Shown piece by piece: positions 36,872 to 39,800 of a stretch of 64,000 nt of DNA. Under the pieces are notes generated by a model. It did no database searches. It saw only the letters and a list, made by a program, of their open reading frames with translations, and was not told the origin of the DNA. The stretch comes from a virus. The stretch is taken from positions 1-64,000 of IMG/VR virus record IMGVR_UViG_3300036791_000458, one strand, 5' to 3'. Within the stretch, counting starts at the first letter, position 1, and each line of letters begins with the position of its first letter. A program made the position numbers and the translations under genes.

Positions 36872-39800
36872 TAACTTTTCTTCCAAGTTTTTGTACTGGT
36901 ATCGTAGTATCCAATTGGTTTGAGCGTAACTACCGTGGTAGGAATATCAGCTACGTGGAAATATGGATTCGGAACCTGACGAGTGCCCGTTACTTCATAT
37001 TCTCCCGAGACTATCGCTTCTGACCATTTGTAGCCAAACTCTTGCGCGTCTTCCTTTGACCACGGATTGTACCCGGACATTCTGGTGCCTTTCGGAAATT
37101 CGAAAACCGTTGGAATACCTTTCTGATTCTCCGGATCGTGATACGCGTATATTTGAACTTCTCCCACATCACCGCCACTTGTCGCAGTCAAAGGAAGTTT
37201 GAATGTATCTCCAACCTTCCATTGAATCTTTGCACCGTCATCAAACGCGTGAAATAGTTTCTCGTTCGAACCACCATGATCATTCGAAATATTATCTAAC
37301 ATCAAACCTACATCTTTTTTCTCCGGGTCACTTGCGAGTCCATCATACTTGAATCCGGGAATACCCATTTCCTGCGCGGAATACCCGGACATCCGGAAAC
37401 TAGTTCCATGAGACGAACCCCAGTACCCGCGCCCTACACGCGTGTGTGTATCTGCATCGTAGTCTTCTGCGGTGTATCCTGAACCGGATGACGATGTGAA
37501 TTGACCACCACCCGGTTCACCTGCCGCGACTCGCGCTTGATCTTCTGAGTACTTATTGATTGGCGGTTGCGGAATGAAGAGGTCACCTTTAAAAACAATT
37601 TGATCGGTGAACTTGTTCTTGCAGTATTCAAGTGTCTTTTCGTCGTTCAAGTACTTTTTGAATGCAGCTAAATGTCTTCCCTTCGGAGCATAGGCCATGA
37701 ATACGATGTCCGGCTCGCCATGATTAAATTCTTTAAAGGCAGTCTTGTTCCAATCGTGAGGCGCGTAGGTATCATCCCATTTTGAACGACTAGTCTCTAC
37801 GAATCCTGCCTTCGCATACAACTTGGGAAGCACAGTGTCAAAGCAATCTAGTTTGTTGCCACCATTCTGAACTGCTAAACTAAGCGCGGAATAGGCGACG
37901 CCTTTATTCCCGGAACCGGGAGTATTGAAAAGCGATACAATATCACCGTCATCTTTGATCGCAACTCCGCCCTTACCATTCTCGGTAACAAACAATCGCA
38001 TGTGCTCGTAGTCTTCTGGTGGATAGACGTATACAGAAGCACTAGCTGGATTCACAGCCTTAGATGCTTGAATAGCTGCGGTGAAAGCTACGGCCCGGTT
38101 ATCTCCTTGTAGTTCAAGGTAATTGGTTGGCGTTATACCCTTCGAAGAAAAGTCTTCATGTGCTTGTTTATTAGTTTCCCAAGGAATCGCGGCAACGTTC
38201 TGTCCTGCTACATTTACAGTCCGAATCCCTCTAACATTTCGTCCGTAAGCGTTGGATATTCCTTCTTCACTTCCGCTTTTATCTCTTCCAGTGTCTGCTC
38301 CGGAAGCGCGGGTGTCTTCGGTTGTGGATTGTCCGGCACTTGTTCCCCCTTCTGCTTCGAATCTTCCATGATAGTCACGTGCTTGGTCTTCTGAGTATTT
38401 CTTGACTGCGGTGCCAAGTTTAATTACTTCGCTCGTACCATCTGCTTTAGTAATCGTAAGAGAATCGATGAATACAGTTTGACCTGATAGAATCTGGTTG
38501 CCAACTAATTTTAAACTACCGCAATCAGGTTTCACGTAGGCGATAGTCATGTGAGGATGGAAATCAAACGTTGCAGGTTTAAAGTCTGCGTAGTCTGCGA
38601 CTTCCTGATTGATCTGCTCAAGTGGAGTTAAATCTTTTTCTAAGTCATCGCGCTTCTTCTTTTTCCCGTCTGTTTCAAGATTGTATGTGTTCAATCCTGT
38701 CTCGGTTGTTATACCGGAAGTAGTTGCGTCCTTGATCATGGCAGGTTCTTCGGCTGTCGCGAACGCTTTTTCTTTGAACTCTTCCATCGGCATAACGTCC
38801 ATCGACTGGAAGAAGTCAGGACTTGTGTAGTTATCCAAAAATGCTTTCTTTGCATCGGCTGCGGAGTCCCAACCGAGCATGACCTTGTCTTCGTCGTAGT
38901 CCCCAGTAGAAGGCTCCTTAGTATGAATAACATAAGCGAAAGCCGCGTCTTTACTTGGGCCAATAAAGCAGTCAACATGGTCACCGTCTACACCTTCTGT
39001 ACCCCGAATGTACCCGTAAGGGTACGTCATCGTTATAGACCAATGCTTACCGTCTTTACCGACACCTTCTCTAGTCGAACCCTTATCGGTTTCGATGGAT
39101 ATTTTCATCCCTTGGAAGTCAAGACGATCTTCTAATGGACGTTGTTTCTTAAGTTTTATTATGCTATGAGACGCGCCTGAGGCAAGCCACCTATCCGCGT
39201 TTTCTGATGCATCATCTCCCCGGAAGTTCCCGCGAATGACACCTTGCTGTAAAGACCGCTCACTGATAATAGTCGCTGTACTACTCTTAGGCCATAGCTC
39301 AATGATGATATGCTTACTTGTTACATGAGCTAGACCATCTCTCATGTGTTCTATGGTGCGCGGATCATCTTTCGCTCCTTGCATTCCTGCGATACCGTTC
39401 TCAGAAGTCACACGAATGTTGCCGTTATCTATCGCGTAGCCGACTATGTTTGAAGTCTCACCCGCGTTAACTGCAACTCTTCGAGATTGAGTACTGTCCA
39501 ACAAACCATTCTGTAGAGCAGAACGAGCATGGAATCCACCATTGTCCCGGTTAACGATAAACTCCCCGTCTTTGGTTATCCACCCTTCTGGCAGGATACC
39601 AATACTCGATAGTTTGACTGTGCCTTTTTCGCCGTGGCCTTCTTCTCCCGGATAGAACCCAGCAGGAGTTTCATCTTCACTCGCAAATCTTCCGTGGTCA
39701 TCTCTTGCTTGGTCTTCCGAGTACTTGAAAACTTTGTTAGTCTTTGGCGCACGAATCATGTAAGCATACTTACCATTATCACGACGATCAACTTCAAATC

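Follow-up and report, generated by a model that had tools for sequence, protein, structure and literature searches.

How large effector polyproteins are loaded into phage heads and cut there is largely unknown outside T4 and P1. The viral DNA analysed here, a window of 64,000 nucleotides (nt) covering positions 1 to 64,000 of the IMG/VR record IMGVR_UViG_3300036791_000458 (G000, the window phage), raises this question in a particular form. An open reading frame (ORF) of 1884 residues for a putative head-packaged cargo polyprotein contains, in its interior, a 20-residue copy of the N-terminus of the phage's own major capsid protein. What does a piece of the shell protein do within the cargo? 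A preliminary description of this DNA had noted the copy and had proposed that it docks the polyprotein on the procapsid lattice or scaffold by self-mimicry. Our analysis shows that the copy is real and beyond chance, and it is most likely a cutting and/or loading signal that would be common to the cargo protein and the capsid protein. More specifically, we favour a capsid-type site for the maturation protease; cutting there would release one half of a split 2H phosphoesterase, the C-terminal one, with an N-terminus like that of the capsid protein, although we give this reading somewhat less than an even chance.

A copy of the capsid N-terminus within the cargo polyprotein

The capsid-like peptide is encoded at positions 38674–38733 on the minus strand, reads KDATTSGITTETGLNTYNLE and makes up residues 1265–1284 of the 1884-residue ORF (36871–42525). 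The original stretch, KDATTTGISTGTGLNFYNLE, lies at 15287–15346, likewise on the minus strand, and corresponds to residues 15–34 of the 529-residue capsid ORF (13799–15388), after a conserved LRK↓D (the arrow marks a putative cut). Retranslation confirmed both locations and the identity of 16 out of 20 residues that had been described before; at the DNA level, 38 of 60 bases are identical. The similarity starts exactly at the junction Lys and stops sharply 20 residues further on, and the flanks are unrelated. This Lys, K1265, is both the first residue of the peptide and the last of M1263-I1264-K1265 (38731–38739, minus strand), a hydrophobic-x-Lys junction that forms a putative K↓D protease site. 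The capsid stretch is preceded in the same way by L-R-K, as the preliminary description had stated.

A recount also agreed with the earlier observation that 11 of the 16 identical residues are encoded by different codons, the other five by the same codon. Since even synonymous usage would lead to ∼5.4 same-codon matches (our own arithmetic), the synonymous sites look randomised. The proportion of synonymous differences (pS, Nei-Gojobori) between the copy and the resident capsid gene of G000 is 0.97, i.e. synonymous sites are saturated, while 80% of the residues are kept.

Both stretches are of low complexity and rich in Thr and Gly, and their likeness could in principle be due to chance. BLASTP with compositional matrix adjustment would allow this, as it gave the match 20 bits and E = 0.75. 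We overrule this value because of the global shuffles, the block shuffles and the six-frame background scans. The best ungapped BLOSUM62 score is 86, compared to a mean of 39 (standard deviation 3.7, maximum 52) for the shuffled capsid protein. When both proteins were shuffled in 20-residue blocks, which preserves the local T/G-rich composition, the mean was 40.3 (standard deviation 4.4, maximum 49) and the Gumbel P ∼1e-6. Seven related phage records were also scanned in six frames, each for matches to its own capsid peptide; the copy scored 80–81 and the next-best 20-mers 20–36. Together with the purifying selection seen in a second carrier (see below), these results refute chance resemblance, which we regard as practically out of the question.

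The second copy was found in one other record only, that of the relative IMGVR_UViG_3300036828_000363 (G001), whose capsid protein is 93% identical; it reads KDATTSGISTQTGLNAYNFE and lies in a 973-residue ORF. The records of 13 other relatives, one of them judged 92% complete, hold no copy, but most are fragments, so that this absence is weak evidence. In scans of IMG/VR, JGI metagenome contigs and GTDB genomes with a motif pattern every other match was a capsid N-terminus, and no further carrier emerged when the peptide and the C-half of 2H were searched by words against 5.8 billion proteins. A 20-mer starting with KDAT in a further relative (G008) scores 33 and lies in an unrelated 308-residue ORF; it was taken as chance.

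Selection on the peptide

Between G000 and G001, Nei-Gojobori estimates for the peptide are 1.02 synonymous (dS) and 0.093 non-synonymous (dN) substitutions per site, from eight synonymous and four non-synonymous differences. The InPase domain gave dS 0.756 and dN 0.039, and the 2H C-half, which is 90% identical, dS 1.05 and dN 0.057; the constraint on the peptide (dN/dS ∼0.09) is similar to that on these flanking enzyme domains. The Lys/Arg-rich spacer directly after the peptide (residues 1285–1297; 38635–38673, minus strand) is variable in the same alignment, with indels and many replacements. By these estimates the peptide is under purifying selection between the two phages. Together with the saturated synonymous sites between copy and capsid gene, this upholds the earlier view that selection acts on the peptide and not on the DNA.

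Kept in the copy are K1, D2, T4, T5, G7, T12, L14, N15, Y17 and E20 (numbered from the junction Lys), all of which are invariant or nearly so in capsid proteins. The only capsid-invariant residues lost are F16, replaced by Thr or Ala in the copies, and L19, for which G001 has Phe. Positions 6, 9 and 11 are variable in the copies and in capsid proteins alike. Asn occupies position 18 in both copies and in the capsid proteins of G000 and G001 only, while all other capsid variants have Tyr, Phe or Leu, and this single-site, lineage-specific match could reflect descent or co-adaptation. Among all collections the capsid gene nearest to the copy at the DNA level agrees in at most 43/60 nt, and recent transfer from another capsid lineage was therefore rejected as an explanation.

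The same data bear on the idea that the peptide is an evolutionary leftover, with the 5′ end of a capsid gene captured during shuffling of cargo cassettes and now serving as a linker or as part of the module that holds the 2H C-half. The cargo block is mosaic, with module order and ORF boundaries that differ between G000 and G001 and a 2H domain split by an insertion; moreover, the copy is confined to one shallow lineage and has lost Phe16. However, most residues were kept although synonymous sites relative to the capsid gene became saturated, the dN/dS ratio is low while the adjoining spacer drifts, the retained positions are those that are invariant in capsid proteins, and none of the collected capsid genes is close at the DNA level. 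A functionless leftover fits poorly with the selection data, and we consider an origin of this kind unlikely.

The capsid protein and its putative maturation junction

If the copy is a signal, which property of the capsid protein does it reproduce? The 529-residue ORF has no match in Pfam or NCBIfam, but it is assigned to PHROG 13692, and its AlphaFold2 model, based on an alignment of 21 relatives, reached a predicted TM-score (pTM) of 0.73, with a spine helix at residues 127–149 and E-loop strands at 67–76 and 95–103. Foldseek matched the model to the capsids of SPO1, SU10, Pa223 and HK97 and to encapsulin shells, with a probability of 1.0 for the SU10, SPO1 and HK97 capsids. On the basis of this model, the ORF encodes an HK97-fold major capsid protein. 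The N-terminus is predicted as a helix (4–13), a coil (14–31) and a second helix (32–44). Residues 15–34, predicted as coil, lie ahead of every core element; since the predicted local distance difference test (pLDDT) is <50 over residues 1–39, their assignment to the N-arm is made from topology. The predicted location of the copied stretch in the N-arm region agrees with the preliminary description.

We gathered ∼30 capsid N-termini with 25 distinct 20-mers, using capsid protein and alignment searches of IMG/VR, a degenerate DNA pattern of the motif that was run on IMG/VR, JGI metagenome contigs and GTDB genomes, and an INPHARED search. The leader ahead of the motif (residues 1–14 in the window phage; 15347–15388, minus strand) differs among relatives in sequence and in length (10–38 residues) and may be a short propeptide. 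The motif itself is strongly conserved: K15, D16, T18, L28, Y31, L33 and E34 (motif positions K1, D2, T4, L14, Y17, L19 and E20) are invariant in 21 aligned relatives, and motif positions T5, G7, T12, N15 and F16 are nearly invariant among the variants. At the junction, K15 and D16 are invariant in 21–25 relatives, L13 and R14 likewise or almost so, and a hydrophobic-x-K precedes it in 25/25 distinct variants. Even the Brevundimonas phage vB_BpoS-Polewnik (ON529863.1), with a capsid protein of 34% identity, reads GLAK↓STFAQSGSATSGLTYYDLE at the same place.

Proteolytic cutting before proline is generally disfavoured. The residue after the terminal LE of the motif is Pro in 19 of the 25 listed capsid variants; this argues against a T4-like cut at that position, which was rejected. 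Maturation would then plausibly occur at the conserved hydrophobic-x-K↓D. With the shared hydrophobic-x-K context, a cut after Lys15 and thus maturation of the capsid protein at LRK↓D, as proposed in the preliminary description, is plausible.

Two observations concern the distribution of the capsid family. In the cultured phage Polewnik the capsid protein (19926–20225) is annotated as hypothetical and has a 38-residue leader followed by LAK↓S...SGLTYYDLE. When 185,579 species genomes were scanned with the capsid-motif DNA pattern, the only match was CAZKYG010000260.1, a 61-kb contig in a metagenome-assembled genome of an uncultured Gemmatimonas sp., and a capsid gene of this family on a Gemmatimonas-binned contig is a possible clue to the host.

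The conservation of the motif also allows two other functions to be weighed. Firstly, the peptide could be a common recognition motif for another enzyme or partner, e.g. a Thr-rich sequon for a glycosyltransferase or a chaperone site, so that the capsid protein and the cargo fragment would receive the same modification. The peptide is rich in Thr, Ser and Gly, and a large gene for a multi-domain glycosyltransferase/methyltransferase lies in the structural region (19466–22447). However, the capsid motif is kept in ∼30 relatives including the distant Brevundimonas phage, and its conservation extends beyond Thr to K, D, L, N, Y and E. We regard this function as very unlikely.

Secondly, the peptide could be the docking tag of the preliminary description. 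By mimicry of the N-arm it would bind whatever the capsid N-arm binds, be it the scaffold, neighbouring capsid subunits or vacant N-arm sites around the portal vertex, and in this way the polyprotein, or a 2H fragment once released, would be loaded or anchored in the head, with no need for cleavage. The predicted N-arm location of the copied stretch is in line with such a role. In procapsids, N-arms touch the C-termini of the scaffold, and in mature heads they reach adjacent capsomers (PMC5644958, PMC6813328). The length of 20 residues and the lineage-specific Asn18 are more in keeping with a binding interface than with a minimal cut site, and short head-targeting peptides are known from the capsid targeting sequence (CTS) of T4 and from DarB of P1 (PMC5694885, PMC9024508). 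On the other hand, a mimic that docks on the lattice would be expected to keep the near-invariant aromatic Phe16, which the copies have replaced. Furthermore, the prediction places the copied part in the coil that joins helices 4–13 and 32–44, while it is a helix that the scaffold grips in 80alpha and SPP1 (PMC5644958, PMC6813328).

The cargo block and its linkers

The organisation of the cargo genes bears on docking and cutting alike. The copy is located in a head cargo block of four consecutive overlapping ORFs (34868–47476, minus strand) that together hold 10 K↓YSEDQ(A/S)R linkers, by which the block is divided into modules. The ORFs are a portal with a C-terminal extension (44480–47476), a 662-residue ORF, the 1884-residue ORF and a 672-residue MuF-like ORF (34868–36886). 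Relative to the 1884-residue ORF, the portal (PF04860) lies two ORFs upstream and the MuF-like ORF (PF04233, 28 bits, just under the cut-off) directly downstream. The 1884-residue protein, encoded on the minus strand, comprises a zeta-toxin-like kinase, the split 2H, a cytidylyltransferase-like domain (CTP_transf_like), InPase, several unassigned modules and six K↓YSEDQAR linkers. With several unrelated effector domains in a late head-gene context it is a polyvalent protein of the phage type.

A hydrophobic-x-K precedes all 10 linkers of the cargo block, compared to 25% of the Lys residues in these ORFs (P ∼1e-6), and all eight linkers of G001. This context is thus real, as claimed before, being common to the linkers and to the near-invariant LRK↓D of ∼25 capsid variants. 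Each linker continues with D(D/Y)HGRF or V(P/A)AG..GGQF. The DNA coding for the linkers is only 71–96% identical in pairwise comparison, which points to conservation at the level of the peptide and not of the DNA. The linker motif strings were also looked for in the literature, with no relevant result.

The copy sits between the InPase domain (residues 1133–1253; 38767–39129, minus strand; PF18823, E = 1.6e-39), which is directly upstream of it, and the C-half of 2H with the second HxT motif (38398–38634, minus strand), which ends at the next K↓YSEDQAR linker and matches positions 82–119 of the 152 in PF13563 with E = 0.0027, below the family cut-off. The N-half with the first HxT motif (40876–41220, minus strand) covers profile positions 24–72 of 152; it matches residues 486–530, ∼750 residues upstream of the second half, and is followed by a K↓YSEDQAR linker. 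The insert of ∼750 residues that splits 2H has this linker at its left edge and the copy at its right edge, and a second cut site at the copy therefore makes sense. With its halves so far apart, an active 2H phosphoesterase would have to be assembled from two parts.

The cargo block of G001 is split differently, with the 2H N-half in an ORF of 1818 residues and the copy together with the 2H C-half in the next ORF. The two ORFs (58930–64386 and 64628–67549) are separated by a stop codon and a gap of 240 nt. In the more distant relative IMGVR_UViG_3300021405_000043 (G005; capsid protein 69% identical), an InPase domain of 58% identity is fused directly to a MuF domain in a 642-residue ORF with neither linkers nor a copy, apparently a different delivery route for the same enzyme.

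In favour of the docking tag, the 1884-residue ORF itself includes neither a portal nor a MuF domain. However, the 1818-residue cargo ORF of G001 and all other cargo modules lack a copy, G005 delivers InPase by direct fusion to MuF, and the copy is internal, starting at residue 1265 of 1884, instead of terminal. Packaging by self-mimicry is thus somewhat weakened, and we now consider it rather unlikely. Could the copy nevertheless be N-terminal, through a separate translation start at the internal Met1263? No Shine-Dalgarno sequence or other ribosome-binding site was found upstream of this Met, unlike the capsid gene, and such a start was rejected.

Two further features of the block were observed. 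The portal ORF runs ∼374 residues past a K↓YSEDQAR linker (44483–45604, minus strand); Pfam gave no match for this extension at the C-terminus, and the portal thus appears to bring a cargo module of its own. The cargo ORFs overlap by 16, 31 and 4 nt (36871–36886, 42495–42525 and 44480–44483), and the downstream starts have no recognisable ribosome-binding sites; in G001, other module junctions mark the ORF boundaries. Translational coupling or frameshifting between the ORFs is possible.

A proposed capsid-type processing site

We propose that the copy is a capsid maturation junction together with the first 19 residues of the N-arm, placed in a flexible joint of a head-packaged polyvalent effector. 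The prohead protease would trim the capsid protein after hydrophobic-x-Lys (LRK↓D), and the same protease would presumably cut the 10 hydrophobic-x-K↓YSEDQAR linkers. This enzyme would also recognise M-I-K↓DATT and cut there during head maturation. A fragment of ∼112 residues with the 2H C-half would be set free by cuts at the copy and at the linker that follows, and its new N-terminus would resemble that of the mature capsid protein, while the N-half would be freed at its own linker. Such processing would explain how a 2H domain that is split by a 750-residue insertion, or lies on two ORFs as in G001, is freed as two pieces. Docking of the product on the capsid interior is compatible with this mechanism as a secondary role.

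A candidate for the prohead protease, with a long C-terminal extension, is encoded at 16356–18431 on the minus strand, and a scaffold-like ORF is found at 15510–16307. It matches PHROG 9427 (E = 5e-8) and PHROG 80 (E = 5e-6), both annotated as ‘head maturation protease’, and has no match in Pfam, NCBIfam or PDB sequences. At about residue 520 it contains an internal hydrophobic-x-K-G site that is kept in seven relatives (34–86% identity) and is followed by an amphipathic stretch; this site may serve autoprocessing between the protease and scaffold-like parts. The string DATTGGLRKGLNE in the same protein was considered as a third, permuted copy of the capsid stretch, but it is not conserved even in G001 and was taken as chance. 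One prohead protease acting on four sets of sites, i.e. the 10 linkers, LRK↓D of the capsid protein, M-I-K↓D of the copy and hydrophobic-x-K-G of the protease, would be the simplest reading of these sequences.

Several points weigh against this proposal. We infer the cutting at any of the sites, the enzyme responsible and the later role of the capsid-like N-terminus, and for every protein of this uncultured phage cleavage is deduced from sequence. The assignment of the protease comes from weak PHROG matches. Twenty conserved residues are far beyond the usual need of a protease, and the residues after the cut differ completely between the capsid type (DATT) and the linker type (YSED), so that one enzyme reading both kinds of site is an assumption. 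With two related carriers, the evidence for selection consists of the 12 differences counted above. Finally, the AlphaFold2 model of residues 1120–1376, built on an alignment of three sequences, has a mean pLDDT of 46 and values of 22–26 at the peptide, which is too poor to judge its exposure.

Beyond this phage, copying of the N-arm start onto internal head proteins might be a general, so far undescribed code of tailed phages for addressing and co-maturation, of which the copy in the window phage would be an internal example, placed after the cut site. We consider such generality doubtful. If it is true, loading and/or cutting of any protein with a capsid-type junction would be synchronised with the shell, and new cargo could be recruited by the gain of ∼20 residues of the resident capsid gene. 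As a signal, a copied capsid junction would be a simple and evolvable solution. It would be predictable from sequence by comparing the capsid N-terminus of each phage with its other head genes, and it could guide the design of foreign protein cargo for HK97-type capsids.

Comparison with known systems

A literature search found no paper that describes a copy of a capsid N-arm on cargo, and the comparison is therefore with systems that share parts of the arrangement. Encapsulin cargo-loading peptides are short linear tags that direct enzymes inside an HK97-fold shell, and encapsulin shells are among the fold matches of the capsid protein. These tags, however, are terminal and attach to a pocket of the shell protein; they do not copy its N-terminus, and no protease takes part.

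The cargo protein resembles the polyvalent proteins described by Iyer et al. 2017 (PMC5512222), being a multi-domain effector beside portal and MuF genes with InPase, 2H and zeta-toxin-like domains. 2H and InPase count among the domains that the paper gives as specific to the phage type. The passages considered ascribe release to built-in MPTase peptidase domains and mention neither linkers of the K↓YSEDQAR type nor capsid-like peptides.

Copying of an assembly peptide is known from 80alpha, whose scaffold C-terminus is copied on CpmB of SaPI1, both competing for or sharing the capsid N-arm site (PMC5644958). There the scaffold tail, which binds the N-arm, is copied, whereas in the window phage it is the N-arm itself. 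In P1, large anti-defence cargo enters an HK97-fold head by means of a short signal, in DarB a 30-residue N-terminal packaging signal (PMC9024508), and cargo is found on the inner wall, where DarA-Hdf pairs are bound to the capsid surface (PMC12810830). This signal is found at a terminus, and the P1 proteins are not related to those of the window phage; a resemblance of the signal to the capsid protein is unmentioned in PMC9024508 and PMC12810830.

The CTS of T4 is common to the internal proteins IPI-III, to Alt and to the vertex protein gp24, and it is removed by gp21 (PMC5694885; work of Mullaney and Black 1996). It is N-terminal, lies upstream of the L/I-x-E cut and is lost, while the copy in the window phage is internal, lies after its putative Lys cut and would be retained by the product. 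The two sequences show no similarity, and the copy is not a member of the CTS family. Nevertheless, the CTS is the closest known system: a short peptide that is common to a capsid-lattice protein and head-internal cargo, is tied to a prohead-protease site and acts in prohead assembly.

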